From the NCBI GenBank assembly GCA_022826725.1, contig JAJDUF010000011.1:101000-164999 (forward strand): 64,000 bases of DNA, read 5' to 3'. A program made the position numbers and the translations under genes. Within the stretch, counting starts at the first letter, position 1; each line of letters begins with the position of its first letter. Positions 2,106 to 42,336 of this stretch are shown here, in pieces. The notes under the pieces were generated by a model. That model was given only the letters and a program-made list of their open reading frames with translations. It made no database searches and was not told the origin of the DNA. Source of the DNA: Chloroflexota bacterium. Its GTDB lineage: Bacteria > Chloroflexota > UBA11872 > UBA12225 > JAJDUF01.

Positions 2106-2134
2106 ACTATGGCGCATTCGCATGGCGGTGTCAA
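2106..2134 (-). promoter_or_regulatory. Sigma70-type promoter for the RHH-recombinase operon
   Basis: TTGACA-17 nt-CATAGT on the minus strand, ~30 nt upstream of ATG 2075. Confidence 0.5.
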
Positions 2135-11934: not shown

Positions 11935-11969
11935 ACAGCGCCCAGCGAATCGTCTTCAGGGTCCAGCCG

Positions 11970-12008
11970 GCGGGGTCGCTTCCCTAGGGGGCGGCCCCGC
12001 TTTCGTTT
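11970..12008 (+). terminator. Putative intrinsic terminator/hairpin
   Basis: GCGGGGTCGC...GCGGCCCCGC stem followed by TTTCGTTT. Confidence 0.5.
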
Positions 12009-12037
12009 CCCACCACACCGTCGGAAAGGAGCGTGCG

Positions 12038-12559: not shown

Positions 12560-12586
12560 GGTACCCCAGCCAACAAGGAAAGGAGT

Positions 12587-20800: not shown

Positions 20801-23565
20801 CCGGGATTAAACCCTAATCTTAGGAACTCTTGCTTCACTTTGTCTCTTATGACAGTGAGGGGCACACGGCCGGGATAGTCGTTCATCATGCCCAAGAGTA
20901 CATCCCGCGCAGCGGAGTCGTTGCTTGAGCCACCCAAGATCCACAGGAGTAGCTCACTGTTGAGTCGAGGGTCGAACTGTGAATCCAAGTCCCGGTCTTG
21001 TGTTCCTTTGGCCCCCGAGAGCGCCTCTCCAAGTTTCTCGTTTACCGAAAGCAACCTGTCAATCCCGCCAGCCAAATCCGTGGCAGACCTTAGCGCGGCC
21101 TCAAAGGAGTCCCAGTATTCATCCAAAGCCTTGAGCAGCAGTATCCGCACCATATCTCGGTAATGGTCCTGCTCCATACCCGAGGCAAGCTTGGCGGCGT
21201 CTTGCCTGCTATCCGTAAAAATGAGTAGCTTGCGTGCGGGCTTACCGTTCTGCTTTAAGGGCATCTCTCTGGCCAAGGCGCCTGCGACAACTTGGCAAGC
21301 CTTTTGAAACCCGGTTCGATGCGGACGCAACGGAGTATCGTATTGGCGTCTCCGGTAGTCCGCATCGCAGCGCGGGCATTTGGGAGGAAGAGCGTCCTGT
21401 TGGTCAGCGTCTTGGCCTTGTATAGAATAGACCCACCCATCTATTTGGCCAGGCCTAGATGAAGTCGAACTACGAATGAGTCGGCCGGACTTGACATTGA
21501 GTTTGGCGCGCTCCCACCTCCGGTGAATTCTGTTGTGGGAGAACTCCATGTCTTCCGGCTCTCCATTCGGTTCGTCCTTGCCCAGTGGCCAGAACACCGC
21601 GTACTGGCCGTATCTTTGGTCACCCGAGACCCAGTTAGGCATATCCTCGACGTTAGGCCGGTCCGCCGCGAGAATCTCAACCGCATGGCCAGGCAAGTCA
21701 GCTTTGCCCCGGTAGCCGCCGAGCAAGATGTCGCCACACACTTCACATACGAGCAAGTCCAGTACCCGTCCGCTGCACAAGCAGGTAATACGATGCTGGG
21801 TATGCAGAGCGCCGACGGGACCAACAGCCCCTGAAGAACCACCACCAGCCTCCAATGTCTCCCGATGCATTTTCTCATCGCAGTCCGGGTTGGCACACAC
21901 CCACATACTCTGGACATTGTGAAAAAAGAAGTGTCCACGCACCGGCTGGGGCGACGTGCCGTCTGAATCCTTACGGCTCATTCCCAGAGCCAACAGCAGG
22001 CCACGCATGGCGTCCGAGACGGCCTTGTCGGTTCCTTGTTGCCCGAAGAGCACGCTGTCCAATTTGGAAACCTTGGTTGCGCGAATTTGGCCGCTTCCGC
22101 CGGCGACTACACAAGCATCGCGGATAGCTTCATCAGCCTTGACCTTCAACAGTGCTGCTCCCAATTCGTGCGCCGATTCAACCCCTCCCTCATGCACATG
22201 TCCCAAGGACGCAGCGAGTTCTGACATCGCCCTATCCATGCCGCTATTCTCTTCGGCCGTCGGCGGCTGCATGGGTTTCGACACCTTGGGCTGGGCCTTC
22301 TGAGCGAACGCCTCGAAAGCACCTTGGAATCGGCCCATTAGCTTGTGGGAATTAGCCTTGGGAGGCTCTTGGTCCTCTGATACGATCTCGAAATTGTCCC
22401 GCCCGAAGAACTCGCGCAGGAATTTCCGGGATGCCGCAGTGTCGGTAACACTAGCCGACGTCGCCAGCAAGACCAGTTGGTCGGAATCGGCGGACAGCCC
22501 CAAACGGTCCAGTAACAAGCGCAGAATGTAGGCGACTTCGGTACCCGGCGTTCCCCGGTAGGAATGAAGCTCATCAACGATCAGGAAGAACTTGTTGGCT
22601 TGGTCGGACCTGAGCCAAGCCCTGGTCCGTTCGAACATCGCCGCTTCCACCTGCCGCATCAACATGATGTTCAGCATGTGGTAGTTGGTGATGAGAATGT
22701 CGGGCGGGGTTTCTTGCATATCCCAGCGCGACCACATCTCGCCGCCGTCGATGTTTGGGAAGTAGTAGCGCACATCGGGAGGCAGGTCGTCATCTGCCCT
22801 GACGATAGCACTCTCCTCAGCCATCTGCTTCAGCCGCTCTCTGAGTCTCCTGACAGCAGACTCATTACCTGGGACGCCGGAAACTGGGGTAACTCCGGTG
22901 TATCGCCCAAAGTTCACTCGGTTCCCGCCCCGCTCGACATCAAGCCATCGCAAAACGGTGTCAGAGTCTAAGGTTTGCCGCAGTCGCCGGAGCTGGTCTT
23001 CAACCAGCGCGTTCAGCGGGTATAGCACCATGGCCCGAACGGCGTGCAACCCTTGGGCATTCCGTTTCGTATGACCCCACTGGCTTTGCCACTCGGACAC
23101 GTCATCCTCCCACCACTTTCTGTTGGCGGGAGGAGGCGAGTTGTCAGGCCAGCCGGCGGACTCTCTAGCCAACTCGGCCAACACCGGCAGCAGGAAACAC
23201 TCGGTCTTACCGGAACCTGTACCCGTCGTGACCACCAGGTCCTTCTTGTCTCGCAGTACGGTCCTGACACTTTCCCACTGGTGCTTCCACAGCCGAACAC
23301 CCGGATTTCCCAGCAAGCCCTGCGCCAGGCTCGGCAGGTCGCGGTATTCCCGAGGAAGTTGGGTACTGGCCTCGGCTAGTGTCAGGTTTGATGAAGGGTA
23401 CACTGGCGTCGGCTCCAACAACGGCGGCTGCGACAGCGTGTCCGATGCCGCATATAGAGCCCGTCTCTCCTCGGCCATGTTGGAGTAGCGCAGAGGGAAA
23501 GCACTTTCGATGTACTTCCGATAGACTGCGGTCAAGCGTTCGTAGGCACCAACAAGATCCTGCAT
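17881..23565 (-). CDS. Large DEAD/DEAH helicase with C-terminal DUF1998 (DruE-like)
   Basis: TGTGSGKTE, YPLNAL, VDELH, TSAS, FTDSRQDAA, TTTMEAGVDIG, QRVGRAGRR, CDTSCNRCL. Confidence 0.88.
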   Translation of the reverse strand: MQDLVGAYERLTAVYRKYIESAFPLRYSNMAEERRALYAASDTLSQPPLLEPTPVYPSSNLTLAEASTQLPREYRDLPSLAQGLLGNPGVRLWKHQWESVRTVLRDKKDLVVTTGTGSGKTECFLLPVLAELARESAGWPDNSPPPANRKWWEDDVSEWQSQWGHTKRNAQGLHAVRAMVLYPLNALVEDQLRRLRQTLDSDTVLRWLDVERGGNRVNFGRYTGVTPVSGVPGNESAVRRLRERLKQMAEESAIVRADDDLPPDVRYYFPNIDGGEMWSRWDMQETPPDILITNYHMLNIMLMRQVEAAMFERTRAWLRSDQANKFFLIVDELHSYRGTPGTEVAYILRLLLDRLGLSADSDQLVLLATSASVTDTAASRKFLREFFGRDNFEIVSEDQEPPKANSHKLMGRFQGAFEAFAQKAQPKVSKPMQPPTAEENSGMDRAMSELAASLGHVHEGGVESAHELGAALLKVKADEAIRDACVVAGGSGQIRATKVSKLDSVLFGQQGTDKAVSDAMRGLLLALGMSRKDSDGTSPQPVRGHFFFHNVQSMWVCANPDCDEKMHRETLEAGGGSSGAVGPVGALHTQHRITCLCSGRVLDLLVCEVCGDILLGGYRGKADLPGHAVEILAADRPNVEDMPNWVSGDQRYGQYAVFWPLGKDEPNGEPEDMEFSHNRIHRRWERAKLNVKSGRLIRSSTSSRPGQIDGWVYSIQGQDADQQDALPPKCPRCDADYRRRQYDTPLRPHRTGFQKACQVVAGALAREMPLKQNGKPARKLLIFTDSRQDAAKLASGMEQDHYRDMVRILLLKALDEYWDSFEAALRSATDLAGGIDRLLSVNEKLGEALSGAKGTQDRDLDSQFDPRLNSELLLWILGGSSNDSAARDVLLGMMNDYPGRVPLTVIRDKVKQEFLRLGFNPGGNSHKLSEYLVDGITYSWHECYTWTESTPKEKSQLPPQARRLLGMIDDSLTSELMFTLFQHATRTLESLGAGWATFKPPEETDDGVVNAVESIIRQMGVRRRYPGQAHFFGGDAIPQAGVDLPRNIRSFLDAASISKEQLIATLRNSNVGTLDGNTLGISPTDLYIIKGPQKNTQGQCKGWRCPRCSAFYLHRTGRISVCPDCTDVELEPGTTRESFDYYVYLAEESGPGFRLHCEELTGQTDDGDRHRRQRWFQEVFIGEEQNSERVDGVDLLSVTTTMEAGVDIGDLEAVMMANMPPRRFNYQQRVGRAGRRGAGVSLAVTFCRGRSHDDYYYQRPEQITGDPPPAPYVDVTSDTILKRVFVKELLRLAFVQLGAGGGDRFRDSVHGEFGPVADWANRVEEIRDWLNSPRNEGTIQAVLDALRLGTIWANGDGDTFCRKMIAYAKGPLIDEISSIANGASYHQEALSERLAHAGLLPMFGFPTDSRLLYTDVPRRASPWPPEHGTIDRDLSIAISQFAPGSQTVKDKTLHNACGVTEFYPRGNRVCTDSGFVPPLPGANPTSLHMCPDCQSVQFVVSGTEGYSCQVCNLPQVDPPLDAREPKGFFTDFTPEDYHGVFEWTPSSTVPTLAWDSGEANEQHLGNCGVSAFSGDILSVNDNGGQGGFEFQRASISGRQEWSEAYAVDPGPGRNSRVSVSGEVRKIALLSRRKTDVLLTGLQSWPVGVFADPLSAVGRAAWYSFAFFLRSSAAALMDVDTLEFNAGFRPFRERGERVVGQAFLSDTLQNGAGYCWWLGQPENFERLLREGDVGKTGSLVKIWAGGPHGEECDTSCNRCLRDFYNLSYHGLLDWRLSAEMARLALAPNAVLDLTSSWGLQDNPWQSLCRGSNAPVPVLLENLGYGEAAEIDCLQVYKHKGFNRVSIVRHPLWTDDHPIYRTVAMEAAQRFRGCKIDAVSPFEVIRHPASVLSQNE

Positions 23566-23568
23566 GGT

Positions 23569-24888
23569 CTATTTCTCCAAGAGATCGACGTTCAGTTTAC
23601 GGCACAGTGTCCGGGCCAGGTCCAATGGTATGCGGGGATAGCTCAACCATTCGGGGTTAGCAGTCCGCCCAGGAAGTAGCCCAGAAGCCAGCGTCAACGC
23701 CCGCTCGTAAAGTAACGGCCAGCGCTGCGACGCCGGAATGAGGAGTTCTCCGGAATCCGAATCGTGGATCGCCTCCACCTTCTCTTGGTCCGCCTCCAGT
23801 GCGAGGAAGCGTAGGCCGTACCAGTCGCCACGCAACCATCGGTTGAACGGCTCGTCGAAGAACAGGGTCATGGTCCGGCTGGAACCGTCACCATCGCGGC
23901 CTAGCCGGTACATTCCCAGCTCACCGTGCCAGATGCCGTTCTGTTCGTAAAGAGTGTCGCAGGCCTGGAACCCACCTTGTCGCTGCCACCTTTTGACGTC
24001 GTAAGCCGCGATGGGCAGCTTGGGGATGGAGTGCAGCGAGTCCTTCCATCCATTCAGGTCTGGTAATAGGTGAGCCAACTGGATCGAAGTTGACCCGGCT
24101 TCGACAACCCCGAGATCGGCGCCGCCGTTAGTGTCCCGGGGAAGGCTAGACCCCAACGCAATCCGTGGCGGCCCCGGATAGTGGGTCTGGCGTTTCTCGT
24201 TCAGCGACCACCGCTCTTCGAAAACTCGAATCAGCGATTCCGTGCGCTGCCCAGTCAGGAAACCGCTTGCGGGGTCATCGGGAAACCGCACCAGGGCGGC
24301 CGGAGAAGCTGCCCACCGTGAACCATCGCTGGAACGGTCGATGTGGCCGAGGAGATTGAACCGCCGGAATACCGAGCGGGCCTCCTGCCTATCATCAGCT
24401 ACCCTAAGGATCGCGCACGCCTGTGCGAACGCTTCCCAAGTGCCCTCGCCGCGGGCCGAAACCCAGTGCAGCAATCGCTCGGAACGGGCACATACTTCGG
24501 GAGAGGCCTCCTGTGGCTGCCAGGCATCGGATTGCTCGAACGGGTCGCCGGGATCTGCATATTCCAGCCGCCTGTATTGCAGCGAGTTAAAGCCGTGTAT
24601 CCGAATGTCCTGCCGCTGCACCATACCCTTTATCTGGCCCGGCTTCAGTGGATACTCCTCGTCAAACCTGATGCCCAGGCGTTGAAGGATCCTCCCCAAG
24701 CCACCGGGAATTCGGGGACTCTCGTCATCTACTCCCAAGAATACGTAGAACTGTCCCCGGGCATTTTTCTCTAGTTTTACCAGCGGTATCCGCGCAGCCA
24801 GTTCCGCATTCACCACGGTTGTGGTGATTTTCCGGAGAACGTCTTGGGGGGACCCGACTGCTCTAGCGTAAAAGTACTTTCTCTCCAC
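23569..24888 (-). CDS. Druantia-associated hypothetical protein
   Basis: Tight operon with helicase (3-nt gap); C-terminal WPLLYERALTLASGLLP motif. Confidence 0.65.
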   Translation of the reverse strand: MERKYFYARAVGSPQDVLRKITTTVVNAELAARIPLVKLEKNARGQFYVFLGVDDESPRIPGGLGRILQRLGIRFDEEYPLKPGQIKGMVQRQDIRIHGFNSLQYRRLEYADPGDPFEQSDAWQPQEASPEVCARSERLLHWVSARGEGTWEAFAQACAILRVADDRQEARSVFRRFNLLGHIDRSSDGSRWAASPAALVRFPDDPASGFLTGQRTESLIRVFEERWSLNEKRQTHYPGPPRIALGSSLPRDTNGGADLGVVEAGSTSIQLAHLLPDLNGWKDSLHSIPKLPIAAYDVKRWQRQGGFQACDTLYEQNGIWHGELGMYRLGRDGDGSSRTMTLFFDEPFNRWLRGDWYGLRFLALEADQEKVEAIHDSDSGELLIPASQRWPLLYERALTLASGLLPGRTANPEWLSYPRIPLDLARTLCRKLNVDLLEK

Positions 24889-24890
24889 AT

Positions 24891-26618
24891 TCAGCCCCCT
24901 CCCTGGCCAGAGAAGTTACCATTATTCAGGACACTACCACGCAAGATGTAATCACCGATCGGTGTACCAAAGGTCTCTGTAGGATTGGAAGGCTCCAATG
25001 AATCCCAGGAAAGCACCCTCATGTACCGTCTGTCTACCGATCTGTCGTTTTTCAGCACTTGGACGGAATAGTCACCGGCCGCGAGATGGGATAGATCAAC
25101 CGATGTGTTCGCGGTGACCATTTCATCCAGGGCAGGTTCACTGTCCGGTTGTGAGATGTTGGTCACTCTTATCTGCCAGTTGGGATCAAAGGATGTTATT
25201 GAGAGCTCAGGCAGATGTCCCTCAAGCCAGCTATCGCGCCGCCCGGTCGTTAGCCCACCCTTCAGAGAAATGGAGGCCCTGCCGCGAGGTCGAAGCTCAT
25301 GGAACAACTCATGCATCTGTGGAATTATGCCGTCCCAGTTGGCAGACAGTACCATACACTCCCGGTACTCGAACCATTCATCATAGTCCAATGCCTCTAC
25401 TGGATCTCCATCCCAGTTCAACAGTCCTTCGTCTTTGAGGATATTCAACTGTTCCTCGCACTCCTTCCGGCACAGTAGGAGAAAGGTCTCTCCAAGCCGA
25501 GGTGCTCCCCGGCTAGCGAATGTCCCTGAGGCGCTGTCGAACCGGTCACGAACGAGCACCCAGAAGCTCCGCGCCGGTAGGTGTAGCTCTTCAATCCGTG
25601 AATCCCCGCTAATCTGGTAAGTCTTGCCGCCAGCGGGGTGGACCTGCCACAATGGCCGGAACTGGCCATCCTTCTCTTGGTGCAGGGGCTCCGGCCTACC
25701 GTCGTGTATCACAGCCAAGTCCACGCCTAGCTCTCTGGCTTGGCGTCGGGGAAATAGGTGGTAGTCTATCGTACCGAATAGAGGGTCGAATTCCCGGTAC
25801 AGGCCTGCCGTCAATCGCCTTGGGCTTCGCCAACGGGCGGAGGTACCGTCGCCGGTGCTTGGCTGGTTCCAACCTATCATTGTATAGACCCCGTAGACGG
25901 CATCAACGATGGCATCGTATCTATCCGTAGTTGCTTCCTGTGCCAGGCTTCTAATGTGACTTGTGGAGAATCCGGTAGCGCGATTGAAAAACCAGGCGCC
26001 GACCCTTTCCCGGTCGGAGTCTCTGCCCAGTCCATCCTCCGCATTTCTGAAGTCCTCCTCCAACTTCCCTTTATCTCCTTCCCTCAAGAGTGATTGGGAC
26101 AAGGGATAATTGGTAAACTTTGTCGGCCCCTCAGGGCCGCGTTCAGCCGAAGGTTGCCACTCTTTACTCAGTATCCAACTGTTGAAAGCGACCCATAGCC
26201 CCTCCTCCGGTGCGCCGGGGGGCTTCAATCCGCTAGGGCGGCCCCTTTCTCCGCCCAGGTCCAGTATTTCCCGCAGTCGCGTAAAGTAGTTTATTTCGGC
26301 AATGTCGTCTTCCGGTGCCATGCGATGCGCGGCCAACACCATTGCGCCAAGAAAAGCTACATACGGTGGAGTGTCATCTGCCTGTTCCAGAGTTGCTGTC
26401 GGCAGCACGACTCGCCCGTTGGTAACACACTCGTTTCGGACGGCCGACTCAAAGTCCCGCACGGCGCTGGACAATCTGCCCTCGGCAAAGCTGCCAGCTC
26501 CAATTTCTATCAGGGCATCGTCATCCACGCTCAGGTAAAAGACATCTCCGGGGAGCATACCCTCCGTGAAGAATTTCGCGATCGCTTCATTCCACTCGAA
26601 GTAAGAAGCCATGAACAC
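24891..26618 (-). CDS. Druantia-associated protein (DruH/DruF-like N-terminus)
   Basis: YFEWNEAIAKFF...PPYVAFL..MVLAA...NYFTRL; first gene of the three-gene operon. Confidence 0.65.
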   Translation of the reverse strand: MFMASYFEWNEAIAKFFTEGMLPGDVFYLSVDDDALIEIGAGSFAEGRLSSAVRDFESAVRNECVTNGRVVLPTATLEQADDTPPYVAFLGAMVLAAHRMAPEDDIAEINYFTRLREILDLGGERGRPSGLKPPGAPEEGLWVAFNSWILSKEWQPSAERGPEGPTKFTNYPLSQSLLREGDKGKLEEDFRNAEDGLGRDSDRERVGAWFFNRATGFSTSHIRSLAQEATTDRYDAIVDAVYGVYTMIGWNQPSTGDGTSARWRSPRRLTAGLYREFDPLFGTIDYHLFPRRQARELGVDLAVIHDGRPEPLHQEKDGQFRPLWQVHPAGGKTYQISGDSRIEELHLPARSFWVLVRDRFDSASGTFASRGAPRLGETFLLLCRKECEEQLNILKDEGLLNWDGDPVEALDYDEWFEYRECMVLSANWDGIIPQMHELFHELRPRGRASISLKGGLTTGRRDSWLEGHLPELSITSFDPNWQIRVTNISQPDSEPALDEMVTANTSVDLSHLAAGDYSVQVLKNDRSVDRRYMRVLSWDSLEPSNPTETFGTPIGDYILRGSVLNNGNFSGQGGG

Positions 26619-26996: not shown

Positions 26997-30143
<3,147 letters not shown>

Positions 30144-30224
30144 GGCATCCGTCCTGCCCTGGACATGACAAGCTCATTCCAATTGGGCAGTTGGCTCTTT
30201 CGCCGTGGCCCTATGTAGTCGTTG

Positions 30225-30605
30225 TCACGGTGCCGCTGAACGCTCTTCAATGATGACTTCGCCGTCGGCCCATGCTTCCAGCGTTACGCTACTGTCCCAG
30301 AGCAGGTCCATGCCCAGCAGCGGGACACTATCCGATTGCAGCACCAGCGCGTCAGCCAAGCGTCCGTGCCAGGATACCGTAGCGAGGTAGGTAGTGAATT
30401 CGAACGGCTCCCCACTGGCCAGCTCGAAGACTCGATAGCCGGCCGAGGGAAGGCCCAACCGCCGAATGGCATCCGGGGGTAGTGTCAAGTAGCCGGTGAA
30501 TCCAGTGTCTAGGACGACCTCCAATCCTTGGAGGCTGTCTGCGCTGTCCATAATATCTATGGTAATCAAAGCCTGCTGGTACTGGTTTACTTTCCCTCTG
30601 ATCAT
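30225..30605 (-). CDS. Clan AA (retropepsin-like) aspartic protease
   Basis: VLDTGFTG catalytic motif; PLLGMDLL. Confidence 0.85.
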   Translation of the reverse strand: MIRGKVNQYQQALITIDIMDSADSLQGLEVVLDTGFTGYLTLPPDAIRRLGLPSAGYRVFELASGEPFEFTTYLATVSWHGRLADALVLQSDSVPLLGMDLLWDSSVTLEAWADGEVIIEERSAAP

Positions 30606-30871
30606 GGCGTGAACGTCAAGCTCCCGCCGCCCATACTGTAGGCAGCGCGATATCCAACCCGCAGTCCATAGATGACGGCTTCCGACTGCCGCTGCTGCAA
30701 CCGCAGCGTAGCCGTTGCATCGTTGGCATCCAGTTCGTAGTCACCGGTCTCGATGTCAATGACCACGAACTTGCCGTGCTCCTGCGGCTCCACCAAGTGG
30801 CGGATCTTTTCCCGATAGATGGCCTCGCCACGGGCGCTCACCTCTCCGGGGCGGTAGGTCCGGTTCGCCAT
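30602..30871 (-). CDS. Small DUF5678-like partner of the aspartic protease
   Basis: MANRTY...GKFVVIDIETGDYE; GGAGG RBS; ATGA overlap with protease. Confidence 0.7.
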   Translation of the reverse strand: MANRTYRPGEVSARGEAIYREKIRHLVEPQEHGKFVVIDIETGDYELDANDATATLRLQQRQSEAVIYGLRVGYRAAYSMGGGSLTFTP

Positions 30872-30954
30872 AGTAGCCTCCCGTTGACAGTCGCCGATGG
30901 CGCCGCGTGTAACGGCTCCATACCAGTATACCGGGGGTTCGTTAGCGGGTGGGT

Positions 30955-31069
30955 CGCTCGGCGCCGGGGGTATCGGGTGCCATATCCGCCCGTGTGCTAC
31001 CTGCCAGCCGAGGCCGGTCAGCCAGGCGAGGTCAGCGTGCTCGACATCGGCTTCAGCGATGGTGGTCAT
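30955..31069 (-). pseudogene. hsdR: Decayed duplicate of the hsdR 5' end (copy 2)
   Basis: 31038-31069 matches hsdR 30112-30143 at 31/32; [23 protein letters not shown], then frameshift. Confidence 0.85.
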
Positions 31070-31578
31070 TTCGCCCAGTCCATGACGCCAGCGATTACGA
31101 GAAGGATTATGATAGCCAAAACTACGTGCAGTGCAGCGAACAGCATCGGCACCCAGCGTTCGATGCGTGTCACTGCTCGGTAGGTCTTGCCTTGCCCCTC
31201 CTCTGCCAAATCCCACTCATGCTTGTACACCGCCGCCGGCAGATGCTGCTCCAACTCGTGGATCAGGTCGAACTTGATGCGGTTCAGGTCGGTGTGTGAC
31301 TTGATGACCAAATACCAGACTGCGGAAACGGAAACTCCAGTGATGGGAACGAGCAGCGTCCAGTAGTGCTGGCCAAAACTTGCGGACTGTAGCCCGTACA
31401 GCGCGACGAGGGCCGCGTTGATGGTCAGTAGGTACTGGCTCGAAGCGACCCGGCGTGCGCTTACGTTCTCAGCAGACTGCACGTAGAGCTTGTACTGCTC
31501 CACAAGGTCCGCATGGAACGAGCCGCCGTAGGTCTGCTCGGAGCGATGGACTACAGGTTCTCGCGCCTGACTAGCCAT
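31066..31578 (-). CDS. Multi-TM membrane effector (RipA/SLATT-like)
   Basis: LVEQYKLYVQSAENVSARR...YLLTINAAL followed by hydrophobic helices. Confidence 0.7.
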   Translation of the reverse strand: MASQAREPVVHRSEQTYGGSFHADLVEQYKLYVQSAENVSARRVASSQYLLTINAALVALYGLQSASFGQHYWTLLVPITGVSVSAVWYLVIKSHTDLNRIKFDLIHELEQHLPAAVYKHEWDLAEEGQGKTYRAVTRIERWVPMLFAALHVVLAIIILLVIAGVMDWAK

Positions 31579-31581
31579 AGC

Positions 31582-31974
31582 CTACCTCGGCTTTGCAATG
31601 AGTTCCTTTAAAGTAGGCCACGTCCAGGGATGGATTTTCTTCCTTTTAGGCGCTGACTTCGGGCACGAGCATGTCTTGTTCCTGCGGCCCTTCAGCAGGA
31701 AGTACGGTTTCCCTGCCTGCTGCACCATCGTGACTTCCGCCTCCACACCCTTCGCCTGGTGCGTGTGTTCCCCGCAGATAACGATGGTGAGGTCCGTCCT
31801 GTCAATCAGATCTCGTACCTTCTTCCGCCAGCTTTCATCAAACGGTTCCTGCACAGACCAGTCCGTGATGCTGAACGGTGAATCAGGTCTTTCGGCCTGC
31901 GCTACGAGGTTGCCTCGCAGGTCGCTATCGTGGTCGTAGTCGAAGCTGATGAATGCACTCTTGGTAACCATCAC
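31582..31974 (-). CDS. Stand-alone TIR domain (MTH538/ThsB-like)
   Basis: AFISFDYDHD, DWSVQEP, IVICGEHT, GVEAE (putative catalytic Glu). Confidence 0.85.
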   Translation of the reverse strand: MMVTKSAFISFDYDHDSDLRGNLVAQAERPDSPFSITDWSVQEPFDESWRKKVRDLIDRTDLTIVICGEHTHQAKGVEAEVTMVQQAGKPYFLLKGRRNKTCSCPKSAPKRKKIHPWTWPTLKELIAKPR

Positions 31975-32027
31975 TGCCTCCTAGTCTATTGGCAAACGTC
32001 ATCCAGTACCGCTGCGGGCCGGCTGCG

Positions 32028-32185
32028 AGTCAGTTCGGCGAGGGTGTTCCGCACCTGCCGTTCCAGAATCAGTTGTCCGCAGTCGGCCCACTCGGCGCCG
32101 GGAGTATCGGGTGCGTTGCCCGGCCCGTGCGCCACCTGCCAGCCAACGGCAGACCGTCAGGCCAAGGTGGCGGCTTCGGTGAGGA
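32028..32185 (-). pseudogene. hsdR: More decayed duplicate of the hsdR 5' end (copy 3)
   Basis: 24-nt identity CGGCCCGTGCGCCACCTGCCAGCC with 30060-30083; reads [25 protein letters not shown]. Confidence 0.8.
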
Positions 32186-32214
32186 CAACTATCGTCCATC
32201 TACCATACCTTGTG

Positions 32215-33813
32215 CTAATCCGAGCTATCGCTCTTCTGCTGCACCGCGACCATGACGACAAATCCACGCTTCCCATGAAAACCTTTCCCTCCCGGCCCTT
32301 TCCAGCCATAACTCCCAGTGTTCCCAACCCTACCTTTAAATACCTCTACTACGCTGCTACTATCACCACCTGAAACCTGGACTAGTACATGCCCGATGAC
32401 ATCATCAGGATTCTGCTCGACGTGACATTGATACTCCCGTGGCCCAATCTCTCCCACAATTCTTTCTAAAGCGCTCAGGTTTTGAACAGCACTACTACGG
32501 TCCCTCTGCTCTTGTTCCGCCTGCCGATAACACTCAACGGCTTCATTGAACCGTCCAAGAGCTACGAGCGCATTTCCTTTATTGAAAATCACTCGTTCCT
32601 CGCCTAGGGCAATTGCTTTATCGTAATCTCCAATGGCCTCTCTAAACTTCCCTAAATCCATATAAGTATTTCCGCGATTGAACAATGCCTGTTCGCGGCC
32701 GAAAGCTACAGGTTCACCCAAGCTCACTTCGATTGCTTTGCCATAGTAGAGCAATGCTTCCTCGTAATCGTCCAATGCAGCCAACGCATTTCCGCAGTTA
32801 AAGTAGACCATGACCAGAAATCGACTCCGCAAGAATTCGTTTATATCCAGAACCAGGCTAAGAAAGGGTTGGTCTTTATGGGCCATTGCTTGTCCGTAAT
32901 CTTCTATAGCATCACGATAGAGTTTCGCTTCGGACTTCGCATTCCCACGTAAAAAGTAGGGTTCGCCAATATCTGATGCAAGTTCTATGCAATTATCGTA
33001 AGCAGTAATGGCCTGTGCGTAATCACCCGACTGGAAATGATGGTTCCCCTGGACTAGGTAAAACTGGGGGTCTGTGACCCGTATGGATGACGACACTCCT
33101 TCCGATGCAGAGAATCCATAGATATCGGGGAATAAGGATGACTCGCCGATATCCAGCAATGCAAGTTCTTCAAGGAGTGAATTCTTGTCGTCCTTCGGAA
33201 TTTCTATTTCCGTTATGATCTGGCTATCGGTGGGGATTAAAGGTCGTCCAATAACAAACACTCCACGCTGCCTAAGTATCCTGGGCATCGCATCACCACT
33301 CCACATCGGCTCACAATAGAGCAAGCCGGGAGCGTTAGCCTCGCGGTAAAACACCGCGTCAATCGTTTGGCCACCTTGATCGCTTGGTACCTTGGCAACG
33401 TGAATAGTGTCATTCGTATTTAAGATGAACAGCTTCCCGTTACAATCGCTTGCTTCGCGACTGGCGAACCACAGCGAGACCAGAGGGTCCCACGTGAAGT
33501 CCAGCAAGCCAGTAGCCGCCCCGAAATGTTGCAATTTGGCGAGAAGCTGAAGATCTGAAATGTCGCGTCCGGCCTCGACTCCGAACCCGCGAGTGCGTGC
33601 GGCGTCTACAAGGGTGTTGCGGTGGTAGTCGGCATAGATATTGGCGAATCGAGGATTCTTCAAGACGTCATTCCCCAGGTTCTCAATGAGACGACGGGTG
33701 GCTGCCGAACGTAGGGGCCATGGCGACTTGGCCTGACCTCGGTAGGCGTAGATGCCCGGTCTGGAGGTAGCTTCTCTTATCTTTTGAAGGAATTTATCAA
33801 TGATGGTAGCCAT
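32215..33813 (-). CDS. FRG domain + TPR repeat protein
   Basis: YRGQ, LQHFGAATGLLDFT, RILRQRG; TPRs such as ALFNRGNTY..LG..EAI.DYDKAI. Confidence 0.85.
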   Translation of the reverse strand: MATIIDKFLQKIREATSRPGIYAYRGQAKSPWPLRSAATRRLIENLGNDVLKNPRFANIYADYHRNTLVDAARTRGFGVEAGRDISDLQLLAKLQHFGAATGLLDFTWDPLVSLWFASREASDCNGKLFILNTNDTIHVAKVPSDQGGQTIDAVFYREANAPGLLYCEPMWSGDAMPRILRQRGVFVIGRPLIPTDSQIITEIEIPKDDKNSLLEELALLDIGESSLFPDIYGFSASEGVSSSIRVTDPQFYLVQGNHHFQSGDYAQAITAYDNCIELASDIGEPYFLRGNAKSEAKLYRDAIEDYGQAMAHKDQPFLSLVLDINEFLRSRFLVMVYFNCGNALAALDDYEEALLYYGKAIEVSLGEPVAFGREQALFNRGNTYMDLGKFREAIGDYDKAIALGEERVIFNKGNALVALGRFNEAVECYRQAEQEQRDRSSAVQNLSALERIVGEIGPREYQCHVEQNPDDVIGHVLVQVSGGDSSSVVEVFKGRVGNTGSYGWKGPGGKGFHGKRGFVVMVAVQQKSDSSD

Positions 33814-33850
33814 ATACGTCTACCCCCGCGGGCGAACTGGAGAGGAACTG

Positions 33851-35407
33851 CTACATCCGCATCTCACCCGACACCAGCCTCGGCAGCAGCGTATCACGCA
33901 GCGCGGCGAGGGTGCTATTCTGTCGGCGACAGGCGAGCGTGCGGTTCAGGAGTTCGGAGGTGGCCATCTCGAACGCACGCAGAGTCGGTACTGGCGGAAA
34001 CACTACCTCTAGGGAGAGCACAGCATCTGCACGTGCTCGTTGGTGACTCTTTGATGTGCCTGTGACAAGCGCCTCGATCTGCTGCCGGAAGAGCGGCGAG
34101 CGCGCCAGACAGTAGACATAGCTCCGTGTGAACGGCGGTCGAGGGCGAAGCACCAGAAACTCGGTCGAACACACGGCCCGCTCGTCAGCTTCTACATCCA
34201 CCAGCCATACGCGCTCAATGTTCGGGTTCAACTTGGAGAGGAGGACAACGCCGGGGGGCACACGTGACTTGATACTCTTGATGCTTGCGCCTTGCTCTTG
34301 TTTGGGTGTCTGTCCATCATCGAAGGCGGGGATGCTGAAGTGGTTGAACATGGCGTTTGGCGATGCCAGCGGGTTCTCTTGGTCACGAAGTTGGGTGACG
34401 ATATCACTAAAGGGTCTCACCTCCCACCCCGAAGGTATCTCCCCCAACTCCGATTCTACCAGCCGCTCTGGGAACAGCGCCCACAGCTCCGGCGGCAGGT
34501 ACGGCGGGTGACCGGCCAGCTTGGCGCGAGTGGGGCCGAAGTCCACGAACCAGTCCTGGAAGAGGGCGCGGGCCATGGCCTCCAGCGTCTCGTTCATCCG
34601 GCGGTTCAGCTCGATCTTGTCGTCGAGCGTGCCGAGGACGTAGGCGGCGGTCCGCTGTGCGTTCTTACTCAGGCCGGGGTAAGGAATCTCTGCGAGTTGA
34701 CGCGCAGAAACGTTCGGAAAGGTCGAGCCAGTCGCTTGGACCAACAACTCTGGAAGTTCAACCTCGATTATCCCCCGCACAAATGGCTGGAGTTCGGGCT
34801 CATTCCGGTGACGAATCGCTGCAACACCGCGGCCGATCGCATACTCCTGATCCGCCCAGTTCATGCGGCCAGTGGTTGAGCCTCTAACACAGAAGAGTAG
34901 ATCACCCGGCTGTGCGAACTTGCGGGCGTCAGTAGTGTACTGGACTGGAATCGGATGGTGAGCGCCGAATTCGGTCGGTCCGTTCAGAAGAGCGAATCCA
35001 TGATGCGGTGACACTGTGTCGCCTGATGGGGACTGACCCATGACAATATCGGCAACTTCCCCCAAGGTTGTAGCCTCCCACCCACTCGCCGCTGCCGATT
35101 GCTTGTCCGTGCCTTGCTGCAACACCACGTAGTCGCGCTCTATCACCGCCCGGAAGCGCGCAGAAATCGTGTGCCAGTCAAGCACGTCCACCCGCATGGG
35201 CAACTCCGATTCCTCGAAGGCTTCTTTCAGCCGAGCGAGCCTTCGCCGCTCCAGTGGCCCTTCGCCGACAACGGCCAGGTCCAGGTCGGAGTAGTCCTTC
35301 GCGGTCCAGGTCGCACGGGAACCGAAGGCGCGTATTTCACACACCGGCACGTGCTCTGCCAGGATGCGCCGGACCGTTTCGAGGTGATGCGGGTTGAGGT
35401 CAATCAT
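33851..35407 (-). CDS. hsdS: Type I RM specificity subunit with N-terminal MNT nucleotidyltransferase fusion
   Basis: FGSRATWTAKDYSDLDL (MNT) in frame with two TRDs and LDDKIELNRRMNETLEAMARALF, LRDTLLPRLVSGE. Confidence 0.9.
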   Translation of the reverse strand: MIDLNPHHLETVRRILAEHVPVCEIRAFGSRATWTAKDYSDLDLAVVGEGPLERRRLARLKEAFEESELPMRVDVLDWHTISARFRAVIERDYVVLQQGTDKQSAAASGWEATTLGEVADIVMGQSPSGDTVSPHHGFALLNGPTEFGAHHPIPVQYTTDARKFAQPGDLLFCVRGSTTGRMNWADQEYAIGRGVAAIRHRNEPELQPFVRGIIEVELPELLVQATGSTFPNVSARQLAEIPYPGLSKNAQRTAAYVLGTLDDKIELNRRMNETLEAMARALFQDWFVDFGPTRAKLAGHPPYLPPELWALFPERLVESELGEIPSGWEVRPFSDIVTQLRDQENPLASPNAMFNHFSIPAFDDGQTPKQEQGASIKSIKSRVPPGVVLLSKLNPNIERVWLVDVEADERAVCSTEFLVLRPRPPFTRSYVYCLARSPLFRQQIEALVTGTSKSHQRARADAVLSLEVVFPPVPTLRAFEMATSELLNRTLACRRQNSTLAALRDTLLPRLVSGEMRM

Positions 35408-35822
35408 TGCGCGCTTCCAACGCCGCCAGCAGCAGCCGCGCGTCGTGTACGAACTCCCTGGTGGCGCTATAGACCAGCGCGGCCTTCGCCTCGTCGTAGA
35501 TGTGGGCGGTGACGTTCCTGGCTTCGTGGTGCTGCATCCAGAGGTCCACGTCGGGAATGAGGCGATTCTCGGCCGCGAGGCGAAATAGCTGCCGCCGCGT
35601 AACGCCATCCGCGACATCGGGGCCGACGTAGGTCCTCAGCCAGCGTGCTATCAGCTTCCAGGAAAGCTCGTAGGTGACCTCGAAGTTCTGTATGACGCCG
35701 GAGCGAATACCATTCCGCTCGACCTCAGTCAACTCTCCCATACGCGCGTCATTTTCGCTGACCGCAAGGAGGTCTGCGAGCGCTGTAATCGCGTTTCTCA
35801 GGTGGTCCAACTCCAGTGGCAT
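35400..35822 (-). CDS. HEPN toxin / nucleotidyltransferase substrate-binding protein (HI0074-like)
   Basis: GVIQNFEVTYELSWK; RNVTAHIY (RX4HXY); overlaps the MNT-HsdS start. Confidence 0.88.
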   Translation of the reverse strand: MPLELDHLRNAITALADLLAVSENDARMGELTEVERNGIRSGVIQNFEVTYELSWKLIARWLRTYVGPDVADGVTRRQLFRLAAENRLIPDVDLWMQHHEARNVTAHIYDEAKAALVYSATREFVHDARLLLAALEARND

Positions 35823-35892: not shown

Positions 35893-37467
35893 CTAACGAT
35901 AGCCTAAGCGGGCCAGATTGGTCGCAATCGCCGCGTCCAGCCGCTGCGCCTCGGCTTGCTGCTCGTGCCACTCTGCCGTAAGCCGTTCCATCTTCGCCGC
36001 GAACGGCTCTCCGTCCTCCTCCGGCGCCGCGGCGCCGACATACCGGCCGGGGGTGAGCACGTGGCCGTGCTTGCGGACCTCCTCCAGGTCCGCACTCTTG
36101 CAGAAGCCGGGCACGTCAGCGTAATCGTCCCCACTGCGCCAGGCGTGGTAGGTGTCGGCGATACGGGCGATGTCCTCGTTCGTCAGCTCGCGGTGGGTGC
36201 GGTCTACCATGCGGCCCAGTTGGCGGGCATCAATGAAGAGCACCGCACCGCGCCGGTCGCGGAACTGCCCGTTGCGGCGGTTGCGGGCCAGGAACCAGAG
36301 GCAGGCCGGTATCTGGGTGGAGTAGAAGAGTTGCCCGGGCAGCGCCACCATGCAGTCCACCAAGTCGGCCTCGATCAGGTTCTTGCGGATCTCACCCTCG
36401 CCCGACTGGTTCGAGGACATGGAGCCGTTGGCCAGCACGAAGCCGGCGGTGCCGGTGGGCGCCAGGTGGTGGATCATATGCTGCACCCAGGCAAAGTTGG
36501 CGTTGCCTACCGGCGGGATGCCGTACCGCCAGCGCTGGTCCTCGCGCAGCCGCTCGCCGTCCCAGTCGGAGTCGTTGAAGTGCGGATTGGCCAGGATGTA
36601 GTCGGCCTTCAGGTCGGGGTGCCGGTCGTCATGGAAGCTGTCGCTGTGGGCGATCTGGCCCTCAATGCCTCGGATGGCCAGATTCATTTGCGCGAGCCGC
36701 CAGGTGGTGTAGTTGGACTCCTGGCCATAGATGGAGATGTCTGCCCGTGCCCGGCCGCCGTTCCCGTTGCCGCTGGCATGGGCGCAAATGAAATCCACCG
36801 ACTGCACGAACATGCCCGCAGAACCGCAGCAGGGATCGTAGACCCGGCCGCGGTACGGCTCCAGCATTTTGACCAGCAGTTGCACGACGCTGTGGGGGGT
36901 ATAGAACTCGCCGCCCTTCTTACCCTCGGCGCTGGCGAACTGGGACAGAAAGTACTCGTACACGCGACCGAGCACGTCGTTGGCGCGAGCGGCTGCATCG
37001 CCGACTCGAATGTTGCTGATGACATCAATCAACTGCCCGAGCCGCAGTTTGTCGAGGTTTGGACGAGCGTAATCCTTCGGGAGCACATCCTTGAGCGCGG
37101 AGTTGTCGCGCTCGATACCGGCCATGGCGTCGTCCACCAACTGGCCGATAGTAGGCTGCCGGGCCTGCGCTTTGAGATGTGACCAGCGTGCTTCCGGCGG
37201 TACCCAGAAGATGCCTTGGGCGCGATACTCGTCCGGGTCCTCGGGGTCGGCGCCTTGGTCCCGCTCGGCTTCCAGCTGAGTGTGGGCCTCCTCGAAGGCA
37301 TCAGAGATGTACTTGAGGAAGAGCAGGCCCAAGACGACGTGCTTGTATTCGGCGGCGTCCATGCTGCCGCGCAGGGCGTCGGCCATCCGCCACAATTCGG
37401 CCTCGTAGCCAGTGGTGGCGCTGTTACCGGACTTGGTCTCCGGCTGACGCCGCCGCACCGCGGTCAT
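35893..37467 (-). CDS. hsdM: Type I RM methyltransferase subunit
   Basis: [39 protein letters not shown]. Confidence 0.95.
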
Positions 37468-37652
37468 GGTGCTCCCCTCCCACGCTTGGTCACAGCCATT
37501 TCTGGCTGCCTCCGCACAGCCCTGCCCCATATGGTCACGGGCGCTACCCAAGCATATGCGCCGAGAAACCTTCGGTCAATGCCAATCAGGCGAAGGCCAC
37601 AATCGCTACACATGAGCAGTTCTTCGGGCAACGCCCCAACCTTGGTGAGCCA

Positions 37653-37972: not shown

Positions 37973-39715
37973 TTGATTGCTACGTCCGATTTACCGTACA
38001 TTGACGCTGACGACTTCGGGCGACGTTTCGCCTTGCGAGCCCGGAATCTGATGTGGCTCCTTGGTGCAGGAGCGTCTGCTGCCGCCGGTGTGCCTACTGC
38101 CATGGACATGGTGTGGGATTTCAAGCAGCAGCTATTCGCCAGTCAGAGGCGAGTGTCACTCCAGACGATCTCGGACCTATCCAGTCCCGTCGTTCGCGAT
38201 CGGCTACAAGCGCATATTGACTCATTAGGTCAATTGCCCTCAGTTGGCTCTGCTGCCGAATATGCAGCGCTTTTTGAGGCAGCGTATCCTTCTGAAGTAG
38301 ACAGAAGATCTTACTTGGACGCAAAGGTATCGGGCGCGAAACCGTCCTATGGGCACTTGGCACTCGCAACTCTCATGCATGCAGATCGCACACGACTCGT
38401 ATGGACGACTAACTTTGACGCGCTTATCGCCGACGCTTGCGCTAGAGTCTACGACACGACAGGTGCGTTGACTACCGCTACTCTTGATGCACCCGCCATG
38501 GCCACGCAGGCCATTAGCAGCGAACGGTGGCCGGTGGAAGTGAAATTACATGGAGACTTCCGTTCACGGCGTCTCAAGAATACTCCCGATGAACTACGTC
38601 AACAAGAAGCACAACTGAGACATTTGCTTGTCGAATCGTGCAAACGGTTTGGTCTGATCGTAGTTGGTTATAGTGGGCGTGATGACTCTGTAATGGACGC
38701 CCTTGAAGATGCACTGGTATCGTCCAACACCTTTCCCGACGGCTTGTTCTGGTTACATCGTGGCGATCATCCGCCTTTACCGCGGGTCGCTAATCTGTTG
38801 ACTAAGGCCCAAGCCGCACAGATAGAAGTCGGATTAGTTCCCGTAGAGAACTTCGACGAGACACTTCGTGATCTGGTGCGACTCATCAGCGACTTGGATA
38901 CATCTACACTGAATTCCCTTGCAATGGAGCGCCAACATTGGAGCAGCGCGCCACGGCTAAGTGGCAGGCGTGGGTGGCCAGTTGTCCGGCTGAACGCGCT
39001 TCCATTGGATCATGTGCCAAGTGTGTGCAGACGTGTGGTCTGTGAGATTGGTGGCACATCAGAAGTACGAGAGGCAGTTGTGAAGGCGAGGGCCAATGCA
39101 ATCGCTGTTCGCTCGAGCCGTGGTGTGCTGGCTTTTGGATCGGATCCCGAGATTCGTGCTGCCCTTGAACCCTATAATATTGTAGATTTCGATATCTACA
39201 CCCTTGATCCGAGCCGGCAGCGATACGACTCAACGGAGCGTGGCTTACTGCGGGAGGCTTTGACCCAGGCGATTGTGCGGCAGCACAGTCTGAGCGCGAC
39301 CCGGCGCCGCAGTTTAGATCTGCTAGCACCGGTTGATCCGACAGAACATGCATGGTCGCAGTTAAAGAAGATAGTGGGACCACTTACCGGAATGGTTCCG
39401 GGCCATCGAGAGTTAAAGTGGCGCGAGGGAATAGGCATTCGCCTCGATTGGGCTGATGACCGACTATGGCTGTTGATCGAACCGCGAACCGTGTTTGACG
39501 GCATCAACGCTGACAACAGGTTCGCCGCAGCGGACTTTGCCCGCAAGCGAACGGTCAGACGTTACAATAGGCAACTCAACGACCTTCTCGAATTCTGGTC
39601 CATTCGACTGGCCTCCGGCGAAAGTGACATTCGTGCTCTGGCGATTGGTGACGGTCTTGATGCTGTCTTCCGCATATCCAATAGAGCGTGTTTCTCGCGG
39701 AGAGTTGGAGCATGA
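37973..39715 (+). CDS. SIR2-APAZ NADase effector of a short Argonaute system (SPARSA-like)
   Basis: LLGAGAS, WTTNFD, KLHGD, GYSGRD; C-terminal RYNRQLNDLLEFW; coupled to pAgo. Confidence 0.88.
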   Translation: MIATSDLPYIDADDFGRRFALRARNLMWLLGAGASAAAGVPTAMDMVWDFKQQLFASQRRVSLQTISDLSSPVVRDRLQAHIDSLGQLPSVGSAAEYAALFEAAYPSEVDRRSYLDAKVSGAKPSYGHLALATLMHADRTRLVWTTNFDALIADACARVYDTTGALTTATLDAPAMATQAISSERWPVEVKLHGDFRSRRLKNTPDELRQQEAQLRHLLVESCKRFGLIVVGYSGRDDSVMDALEDALVSSNTFPDGLFWLHRGDHPPLPRVANLLTKAQAAQIEVGLVPVENFDETLRDLVRLISDLDTSTLNSLAMERQHWSSAPRLSGRRGWPVVRLNALPLDHVPSVCRRVVCEIGGTSEVREAVVKARANAIAVRSSRGVLAFGSDPEIRAALEPYNIVDFDIYTLDPSRQRYDSTERGLLREALTQAIVRQHSLSATRRRSLDLLAPVDPTEHAWSQLKKIVGPLTGMVPGHRELKWREGIGIRLDWADDRLWLLIEPRTVFDGINADNRFAAADFARKRTVRRYNRQLNDLLEFWSIRLASGESDIRALAIGDGLDAVFRISNRACFSRRVGA

Positions 39716-41145
39716 GCAGCGAGATTGCCCCGCATATCTGGCTACCTGAGCCAAAGTTGGCATTCCATCATGACCGCTTGTCAGATCACGCGATCCATCC
39801 GCTACGAGGACTTCTGAAGTTTGGCCCTTACTCGGCCGGCTTGGTGCCAGACCCAATCAGAATAGCCACGATTGTCCCCTTCGGAGATGGTGAATGTCTT
39901 TACAGGTTTATGAGAAAAATAAACTCGCAATTCTCTCCAAAGGAACGCAAGGACTATCTGCCTGAATGGCCTGGATTCCAACGTGTCTTTGGCCTTCATA
40001 TGAGGGCAGCACAACATAAGTGCCACATCGAACTACACCAAGAACTTGAAGGAGAATTCACTAGATCACCGAGACCTCACATCGTACTAGCTGAACGTCT
40101 AGTAAGAGCTATTCAACTGCTGCAGGCGCACCGGTCCGAATTCGATGTCATTTTCATCTACATACCTCAACGCTGGAGTACTGGATACGTTGGTAGCTCT
40201 GACGAAGATTTCGATCTCCACGACCACTTGAAGGCTACGACAGCTGCCCTCGGACTGCCAATCCAGCTAGTTCGAGAAGACAGCGCCCTTACTTACCACT
40301 GCCAGGCCAGCGTCATGTGGCGCATCTGTCTGGCGTTATACGCTAAGGCAGGTGGTATTCCCTGGAAGTTGGCTGATACTGAAGCGGAAACGGCATACAT
40401 CGGCATCTCTTACGCCATGCGTTCAACAGAACTAGGTATGCCGCAATTTATCACATGCTGTAGTCAAGTGTTCGATGCTGGTGGTTCCGGCCTAGAGTTC
40501 GTTGCCTACGATGCCCACGAGTTCAATGTCTACCGTGACAACCCATTCCTCTCACGGAATGAAATGTTCCGTGTAATGACTCGGTCAATAGATCTCTATC
40601 GCCGACGCCACGCTGGCAAGTCGCCCCGCCGTGTAGTGGTACATAAGACTACCGAGTTTAAGCGGGACGAGGTTGACGGCTGCATGGAGGCACTGCATCT
40701 GTGCGAGTCGGTTGACTTGATACAGGTCGTCGAAAACGTGGGATGGCGTGGTGTGCGTATCGACCGCAATCATCATGGAGCCAAGAGAGGTAAGCAAGGA
40801 AGCGCCGCCGCCTTCCCGGTCTCGCGGGGAACAGCGATAGGCCTTTCACCGCGAGAGGCACTAGTATGGACCCACGGGGACGTGAAGGGCGTAAGCACAC
40901 GGGGTTCTTTCTTCAAAGGTGCTCGGAGCACACCCAGCCCGCTTCGGTTGGTGCGCCACGCCGGCCACGGCCCATGGGACGAGACTGTCCGCTCTATCCT
41001 GGGGCTCACGAAGATGAACTGGAACAACGACTCACTATACGACACGTTGCCCGTCACCATGGCCTATGCAAAGGTGCTAGCCCGTGTAATCAAGCGCATG
41101 CCGACCCTGAGACGCACGCCCTATCAGTTCCGGTTCTTCATGTAG
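39712..41145 (+). CDS. Short prokaryotic Argonaute (MID-PIWI)
   Basis: LPEPKL.F, HPLRGLLKFGPY, DLHDHLKA, ALYAKAGGIPW, VVVHK, LTKMNWN, C-terminal YQFRFFM; ATGA overlap. Confidence 0.9.
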   Translation: MSSEIAPHIWLPEPKLAFHHDRLSDHAIHPLRGLLKFGPYSAGLVPDPIRIATIVPFGDGECLYRFMRKINSQFSPKERKDYLPEWPGFQRVFGLHMRAAQHKCHIELHQELEGEFTRSPRPHIVLAERLVRAIQLLQAHRSEFDVIFIYIPQRWSTGYVGSSDEDFDLHDHLKATTAALGLPIQLVREDSALTYHCQASVMWRICLALYAKAGGIPWKLADTEAETAYIGISYAMRSTELGMPQFITCCSQVFDAGGSGLEFVAYDAHEFNVYRDNPFLSRNEMFRVMTRSIDLYRRRHAGKSPRRVVVHKTTEFKRDEVDGCMEALHLCESVDLIQVVENVGWRGVRIDRNHHGAKRGKQGSAAAFPVSRGTAIGLSPREALVWTHGDVKGVSTRGSFFKGARSTPSPLRLVRHAGHGPWDETVRSILGLTKMNWNNDSLYDTLPVTMAYAKVLARVIKRMPTLRRTPYQFRFFM

Positions 41146-42333: not shown

Positions 42334-42336
42334 TTC

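Follow-up and report, generated by a model that had tools for sequence, protein, structure and literature searches.

How do defence genes come to stand inside the operon of a restriction-modification (R-M) system, and how do several of them come to be stacked at one site? Nesting in restriction, BREX and similar operons has already been used to discover immune systems, with the entry of the cargo left open. The question is raised by a type I R-M operon of a Chloroflexota bacterium, contained in the 64,000 nucleotides (nt) of DNA analysed here, a stretch referred to as the window. Between hsdS and hsdR of this operon three cassettes follow one another, separated by two dead partial copies of the start of hsdR. 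That type I operons can harbour defence genes is already known; it is the recurrent scars that appear to be the new part. They are a real and recurrent footprint, which explains the nesting and stacking of cargo in one widespread type I family.

Two dead hsdR starts between three cassettes

The genes are transcribed in the order hsdM, HEPN-like gene, MNT-HsdS, FRG-TPR, hsdR copy 3, TIR, 8xMP, hsdR copy 2, small open reading frame (ORF), protease-like gene and intact hsdR. All parts named by the original prediction are present, in the order it gave and on the minus strand. The portion from hsdS to hsdR comprises the following features (sizes in amino acids, aa).

33851..35407, minus strand, frame open from 35617: MNT nucleotidyltransferase and HsdS in a single ORF (PF01909 at aa 80-152; PF01420 from aa 178)
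32215..33813, minus strand: cassette 1, protein with FRG domain and TPR repeats, 532 aa (PF08867, E 1.4e-12; TPR families; PADLOC candidate PDC-S15, E 4.2e-24)
~31984..32192, minus strand: hsdR 5' copy 3, the presumed older scar (nhmmer match to hsdR nt 27-213, E 4.6e-20; direct repeats; alignment)
31582..31974, minus strand: cassette 2, gene 1, ThsB-like TIR protein, 130 aa, likely ATG at 31971 (PF08937, E 9.6e-09; PADLOC ThsB, E 6.7e-05)
31066..31578, minus strand: cassette 2, gene 2, membrane protein of the 8xMP family, 170 aa (PF24838, E 3.2e-36)
30953..31069, minus strand: hsdR 5' copy 2, the presumed younger scar (nhmmer match to hsdR nt 1-117, E 5.5e-19; direct repeat of 87% over 85 nt)
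30602..30871, minus strand: cassette 3, gene 1, small protein, 89 aa (ORF, no family match)
30225..30605, minus strand: cassette 3, gene 2, clan AA (DTG) aspartic-protease-like protein, 126 aa (TIGR03698, E 3.1e-12; PF13975, E 0.0024; LDTGF motif)
26997..30143, minus strand: intact hsdR, 1048 aa (PF04313, PF18766, PF22679, PF11867)

Copy 2 has kept its ATG and carries a 1-nt deletion. This ATG overlaps the stop codon of the 8xMP gene as ATGA, such that copy 2 supplies the stop of that gene, and it opens a frame of 155 aa which, after the deletion, runs in frame into the small protein (30602-31069, minus strand); a scar frame that continues into the next gene in this manner may act as a translational relay. 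Copy 3 extends from hsdR nt 1 to ~222, stopping ~5 nt short of the ribosome-binding site that serves TIR. ATA replaces its ATG, 12 nt are deleted, one TGA and one TAG stand in frame, and 53% aa identity is retained. The break points in the window accordingly map to hsdR nt ~117 (copy 2) and ~222 (copy 3), rather than to the range of 115-160 nt proposed earlier. Likewise, copy 2 had been called near-identical to the intact start, with which it shares 99 of 115 bases (86%) over nt 1-116; for copy 3 the figure over the same segment is 76 of 104 (73%), plus a 12-nt gap. The host genome contains these three hsdR-start copies only, one hsdR of this family and no second TIR gene of this kind.

An assembly artefact or a chimeric bin could imitate such an arrangement, and the assembly is indeed of the metagenome type, with 23 contigs and 5.3% contamination. 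The Logan contigs of the probable source run (X1) represent a second assembler applied to the same sample, and thus test the assembler rather than the sample. They cover 29900-31972 and 31779-33900 and bridge each scar. One of them shows no differences, and the other is identical over 29900-31746, followed by 56 differing positions within 31747-31972, so that both scars are spanned without differences. The divergent contig leaves the path of the window inside the TIR gene and, upstream of where TIR starts, no longer resembles the window, a departure that speaks for an artefact; its end is probably the cassette of another organism or a crossover in the assembly graph. Against an artefact, a coral-metagenome run belonging to another study yielded a contig of 222 nt that matches 30856-31077 apart from 8 differences and holds the end of the 8xMP gene, the whole of copy 2 with both junctions, and the start of the small ORF. 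Runs X2 and X3 gave short pieces only, at 90-99% identity. Furthermore, the repeats are short (117-210 nt), only 73-86% identical and for that reason unlikely to mislead an assembler, and the same architecture is present in 17 other loci, many of them on chromosome-scale records. With both scars bridged by the Logan contigs, and copy 2 by the contig of the other study as well, the scars cannot be put down to an assembly artefact, and the probability left to a faulty assembly or bin is negligible.

Recurrence in related operons and probable order of entry

The original prediction implied that the scars would extend beyond this assembly and that relatives would differ in cassette content, and both expectations were borne out. 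The comparison comprises 80 loci in other genomes, out of ~610 relatives reported, whose HsdR shares 65-83% aa identity; the record titles are those of metagenome-assembled genomes of many phyla, e.g. Dehalococcoidia, Binatia, Acidobacteriota, Latescibacterota, Gemmatimonadota, Spirochaetia, Nitrospirota, and gamma- and alphaproteobacteria. A DNA profile of the first 330 nt of hsdR, built from 77 relatives and the window, was run on both strands of ~0.72 Mb upstream and ~0.64 Mb downstream of hsdR in the 80 loci and the window, with L068, which holds two complete systems, excluded from the scar count. Partial copies of the hsdR 5' end lie upstream of the intact hsdR in 17 of the 80 loci. All 22 partial matches (20 in relatives, 2 in the window) are upstream of hsdR and on its strand, and the profile found none downstream of hsdR or on the opposite strand in the same set. 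Each scar is located at a boundary between cassettes, and the end points range across loci from hsdR nt 35 to ~645. A further long scar of ~645 nt occurs in L059, three hsdR-start copies each, as in the window, in L010 and L044, and the metagenome locus L089 shows the order TIR-8xMP, scar, DUF4365 with a 378-aa gene, and hsdR. The survey covers one hsdR family; a search of a plasmid collection with the HsdR N-terminus returned distant matches only, at <47% identity. As a separate observation, an hsdR-5'-like fragment was found just 5' of hsdM in L011 (1274-1359), outside the hsdS-hsdR gap.

In the 65 loci in which the end of hsdS and the start of hsdR could both be placed, the gap between them varies from 24 nt to 5,654 nt, and it is free of cargo (≤167 nt) in 11. 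Scars were detected in 14 of the 54 cargo-bearing loci versus none of the 11 cargo-free ones. Most ORFs in the gaps of relatives are co-oriented with the operon (115 of 148), and a fixed gene content was not seen: Pfam assignments for the 148 ORFs are very varied and rich in defence domains, namely Abi_C/AbiJ, TIR_2, Trypsin_2, RhuM-Fic, PIN/VapBC-like, AAA_21 with DUF4276, OLD with UvrD, SIR2, SIR2 with HerA, KwaB, GmrSD, Mrr_cat, AbiEii, KAP NTPase, Schlafen-like, DUF4365 and DUF1828/1829, among others. Scars of this kind are also found at the other end of core genes. In L004, L043, L052 and L079 a second copy of the final 60-70 nt of hsdM follows an inserted cassette on its downstream side, with HicB-like, MNT/HepT and AAA_21 plus DUF4276 cargo. 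The hsdS 3' end likewise recurs downstream of inserted cassettes in L012 and, as two copies placed between KAP NTPase and a SIR2 gene, in L041. A fragment of the hsdR 3' end was noted in L023 (19404-19667), ~6 kb downstream of the intact hsdR.

The TIR-8xMP pair allows the order of events to be followed. It occurs in operons of this type in nine loci (the window, L005, L006, L007, L010, L059, L078, L083 and L089) and adjoins the intact hsdR in L006, L007 and L083, in the first two of these with the same ATGA overlap as in the window. The segment 31979-30966 of the window, comprising TIR, 8xMP and copy 2, forms one aligned block with TIR-8xMP-hsdR of these three relatives, and because of this colinearity copy 2 can be taken as the former true hsdR start behind 8xMP. 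The cassette of small ORF and protease-like gene would then have arrived later than TIR-8xMP, behind hsdR nt ~117; the small protein is paired with a homologue of the protease-like protein in L006, too. Further cargo stands between 8xMP and hsdR in six of the nine loci (small ORF with protease, VapBC twice, Abi_C, Schlafen-like and DUF4365), and in five of these six a scar begins at the 8xMP stop. In the window, L083, L006 and L010 the TIR gene also has a scar on its upstream side; therefore, TIR-8xMP itself appears to have been inserted into an earlier hsdR. The nearest locus, L083 (aa identity of 83% for HEPN, 75% for MNT and 87% for TIR), carries two unknown ORFs where FRG-TPR would stand, and neither copy 2 nor cassette 3 is present in it. 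When eight loci are aligned upstream of TIR, the homology reaches back only ~10-15 nt from the ATG; L083 seemingly shares the scar register of the window there and the others do not, a register made uncertain by indels. The TIR-8xMP pair was in addition encountered on the metagenome contigs L088 (6608-7510), L091 and L092 without an hsdR of this family in the flanks, and on that account looks like a self-contained module.

Proposed routes of cassette entry

It is likely, in our judgement, that the type I R-M operon serves as a scaffold for embedded cassettes, and that the dead starts record two duplicative insertions, one after the other, into hsdR at its 5' end. The incoming DNA would have come from a related type I operon and consisted of a cassette followed by an hsdR start. 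Its right side would have been joined by homologous recombination inside hsdR, its left side by an illegitimate joint located in the resident hsdR, some dozens to some hundreds of bases from the start; a circle integrating via a single crossover would be an equivalent route. The resident start would thereby stay behind as an upstream scar, with hsdR made complete again downstream, such that upon repetition the newest cassette would always adjoin hsdR. In the window FRG-TPR (or its slot) would have come first, then TIR-8xMP, leaving copy 3, and last the pair of small ORF and protease-like gene, leaving copy 2; a site-specific recombinase would play no part. The original prediction had each cassette bring a replacement hsdR start: the succession of cassettes separated by dead starts is what is found, and the replacement start is the inferred part.

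Several lines of evidence lead to this reading. The VapBC cassettes of L010 and L052 join hsdR at different positions (~nt 103 and ~nt 88), and their distances from a shared palindrome differ as well. This operator-like palindrome (TAGTCTA...TAGACC) lies upstream of vapB in L010 (9220-9250), L052 (9240-9270) and L005 (9260-9290), and the VapBC-like cassette probably carries its own regulated promoter. For the DUF4365 cassettes the scars end at ~35, ~165 and ~295, the junctions being too divergent to resolve. Compared with 78 alleles, 7 of 18 scars are closest to the intact start of their own locus: identity to the own start versus the best other allele is 95% vs 76% in L049, 89% vs 78% in L017 and 85% vs 78% for copy 2 of the window. 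If homologous pairing demanded a donor start of near-identical sequence, the resemblance of young scars to their own locus would be explained. A conserved, att-like hsdR start was considered as a target and rejected, the 5' end of hsdR being the least conserved part of the gene (mean column identity of 0.61-0.64 over the first 240 nt versus mostly 0.65-0.85 in the remainder). Taken together, the varied scar ends, the lack of a recombinase and of inverted repeats, the mirror scars of hsdM and hsdS, and the resemblance to the own start point to homology-anchored recombination in a core gene with a non-homologous second joint, or to the crossover of a circle.

Other observations weigh against the insertion reading. 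No scar is detectable in 40 of the 54 cargo-bearing loci, where either the scars were lost over time or most cargo arrives by another route, e.g. a clean double crossover. Gene conversion between a scar and the intact start could equally explain the own-locus resemblance. Close before-and-after pairs were absent from the genome and metagenome collections, in which all relatives have 70-80% DNA identity, and microhomology at the junctions is unreadable at that distance. As regards the age of the scars, all three pairs of starts are ~86% identical over nt 61-116, which makes an age order based on sequence weak, and in L010 and L044, the other loci with three copies, the fragments are short or equally diverged and no ordered decay is apparent. 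The progressive decay originally proposed is thus visible over nt 1-116 (identity, indel, lost start and stops) and not in the second half of this segment or in these two loci. The age-ordered array draws its backing from the comparative evidence, with TIR-8xMP abutting the intact hsdR in three relatives, and from the lesions of copy 3; identity values favour it only modestly.

A related proposal, an integrase-free cassette cycle, would lead to the same final structure: recombination between a scar and the intact start would pop out a circle carrying one hsdR start, and the circle would re-enter elsewhere by a RecA-type crossover. In line with it, cassettes are flanked by direct repeats of 50-650 nt, and cassette types are met at differing positions of the stack (DUF4365 with a ~378-aa gene in L039, L044 and L089; VapBC in L005, L010 and L052); according to the abstract of PMC545071, circular homologous DNA yields cointegrates in E. 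coli. On the other hand, a cycle predicts a constant scar end for each cassette, and the ends differ between loci for VapBC and DUF4365, as described above. No joined or popped-out form was seen in the contigs, a material that cannot show rare forms. We regard such a cycle as rather improbable, and a somewhat smaller chance still is accorded to the idea that the scars are kept for their function, as translational relays between cassettes or to provide the gene before them with a stop codon. This would suit the beginning of hsdR with ATGACC, whose ATGA is the 8xMP stop and makes the scar necessary for that stop, the frame leading from copy 2 into the small protein, and the scar ORFs that end at or near the start of the next gene in L044a, L059, L078 and L011b. 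Frameshifts, stops, deletions and very different lengths are hard to reconcile with a relay, copy 3 has no start codon, and many stacks lack a detectable scar; a function would in any case be secondary and would not replace the origin by insertion.

Mechanisms with dedicated enzymes fare worse. A site-specific insertion, as in integrons or in integrase islands that duplicate a gene end, is suggested by the look of the array, with co-oriented, probably promoterless cassettes and repeated sequence between them. Integron arrays are alike in their ordered, short, co-oriented cassettes, with the newest at a fixed end; the array described here differs in that no fixed junction was found and in that new cargo enters promoter-distal, next to hsdR, rather than promoter-proximal. 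As originally stated, there is no integron integrase: none of the genes from hsdM to hsdR showed a recombinase domain, and in the window as a whole, whose small ORFs were scanned in part, the only recombinase gene seen is that of a serine recombinase at 281-1858. Neither were attC-type repeats found: a search of 30100-33900 for inverted repeats of ≥12 nt, spaced within 150 nt, gave 0, and no Rfam family matches there, so that integron-like holds only as an analogy, without IntI and without attC-like hairpins in the operon. Genomic islands accrete in tandem at tRNA genes by means of an integrase and a fixed att site; the replaced end of the target gene and the partial copies separating the inserts are shared with the window, the integrase and the constant fragment end are not. 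With scar ends anywhere from nt 35 to ~645, the poorly conserved hsdR 5' end and the existence of hsdM and hsdS 3' scars, a site-specific route is most unlikely.

Annealases can promote recombination with short homologies, and the window does encode a protein with a Rad52/22 domain (10171-11934) beside a primase, which had been proposed as the possible builder of the array. This ORF is ~18 kb from hsdR, in what appears to be the replication module of a mobile element, and a homologue within 10 kb of hsdR is found in none of the 80 related loci, the 17 scarred ones included. Recombination based on homology is the best fit, and the Rad52-like protein of the same island is a very unlikely agent of it. 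Homology-facilitated illegitimate recombination is characterized by one homologous anchor and an illegitimate joint at short microhomology. This process, or a Campbell-type single crossover, has one-sided homology and a partial duplicate of the anchor, and fits the scars of hsdR 5', hsdM 3' and hsdS 3' alike; these are laboratory-defined events, which for the window are deduced from old footprints only. Cointegrates and partial duplications arising from homologous DNA are reported in PMC545071.

Returning to successive insertion into hsdR as the preferred reading, one may extend it, tentatively and with more doubt than conviction, to portable arms. Cassettes would travel together with a segment of the adjoining core gene, and the hsdR 5', hsdM 3' and hsdS 3' ends would let them be stacked, popped out and exchanged between operons of distant phyla by the general recombination of the host, the stranded starts doubling as stops or relays. 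If true, type I operons would possess an equivalent of the integron that works without an integrase.

Operon, island and known systems

The operon into which the cassettes are embedded is a type I R-M system according to Pfam and PADLOC matches, with HsdM, HsdS and HsdR all present and apparently intact, and with the nuclease, motor and C-terminal domains of HsdR complete. Two further features precede those listed above.

35893..37551, minus strand: hsdM, type I methyltransferase subunit (PF02384, E 4.4e-109; PF12161)
35400..35822, minus strand: HEPN-like NTase_sub_bind gene, HI0074 family, between hsdM and hsdS (PF08780, E 1.3e-30; TIGR01987, E 9.4e-21)

From 37551 down to 26997 every long ORF with a family match is on the minus strand. 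The MNT-HsdS ORF matches PADLOC Specificity_I (E 4.4e-80), a model which also spans the MNT part, and has no stop between its halves, as is the case in L083 (5720-7353); it may be a real fusion that links the HEPN/MNT module to the specificity subunit. A consensus scan of the operon strand gave a single promoter-like site, just 5' of hsdM (37579-37551), and no terminator-like site. With gene order and short spacers, this suggests that the cassettes are probably co-transcribed with the operon, a weaker statement than the expression from the R-M operon claimed before; some cassettes may additionally have their own promoter.

The embedded genes are non-R-M genes on the strand of the core genes with defence-associated domains, the matches of defence type being FRG/PDC-S15 and the ThsB-like TIR. 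The protease-like protein scores 46.8 bits against TIGR03698, below the cut-off of 57.35, and its translation contains the LDTGF motif. The 89-aa protein has no match in Pfam (also at a loose threshold), PADLOC or NCBIfam, and its neighbours in the protein atlas are unnamed clusters. No PADLOC model matches 8xMP, on which nothing relevant was found in the literature; TIR and 8xMP occur together in seven related loci. The pair is reminiscent of Thoeris in combining a ThsB-like TIR with a second putative effector gene, and differs in that the partner is 8xMP (PF24838) and not a SIR2 or Macro ThsA, with no ThsA match and a weak ThsB match.

The surroundings look like a large mobile defence island in a probable sponge-associated bacterium. 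A SIR2-APAZ-like protein and a short pAgo (37973-41145, plus strand; PADLOC E 4e-188 and 2.3e-196) are divergent from hsdM and adjoin it, and a Druantia-like set (17881-26618, minus strand), with a DruE-like helicase of 1894 aa and DruL- and DruF-like genes, is located directly downstream of hsdR. The segments 281-13123, 41770-43512 and 57700-60708 together contain the serine recombinase, an RHH protein, a NACHT NTPase of 1743 aa, the primase and the Rad52-like ORF, as well as GmrSD_N paired with a HEPN gene of the RiboL-PSP type, and a methylase resembling Eco57I/PglX.

Embedded defence genes have been reported for several type I R-M operons. The respective papers describe PrrC in EcoprrI (PMC12707154), TgvAB in VPI-2 of Vibrio cholerae (PMC11411939) and DarTG2 in EPEC (PMC12255303), where the hsdS-hsdR site is termed 'a potential recombination hotspot'. 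The PDC candidates of PADLOC belong here as well, and the guilt-by-embedding survey (bioRxiv 10.1101/2024.01.29.577857) contains neither 'hsdR' nor 'recombination' in its main text. The window is alike in its co-oriented defence genes between hsdS and hsdR, and PDC-S15, the candidate that its FRG protein matches, was itself defined on the basis of embedded genes. In the passages covered these papers treat content and function and not the entry of the cargo, whereas the window has three stacked cassettes with dead hsdR starts marking the steps. In the literature searched, supplements aside, no description was found of scars or partial hsdR duplicates tied to the insertion of cassettes.

For this family of type I systems, stranded gene ends are a record of where cargo entered, of repeated independent entry without the need of a dedicated recombinase, and of the relative order of acquisition. 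Searching for partially duplicated ends of core genes could define the limits of cassettes precisely, help to find new defence genes and date their turnover in uncultured communities.

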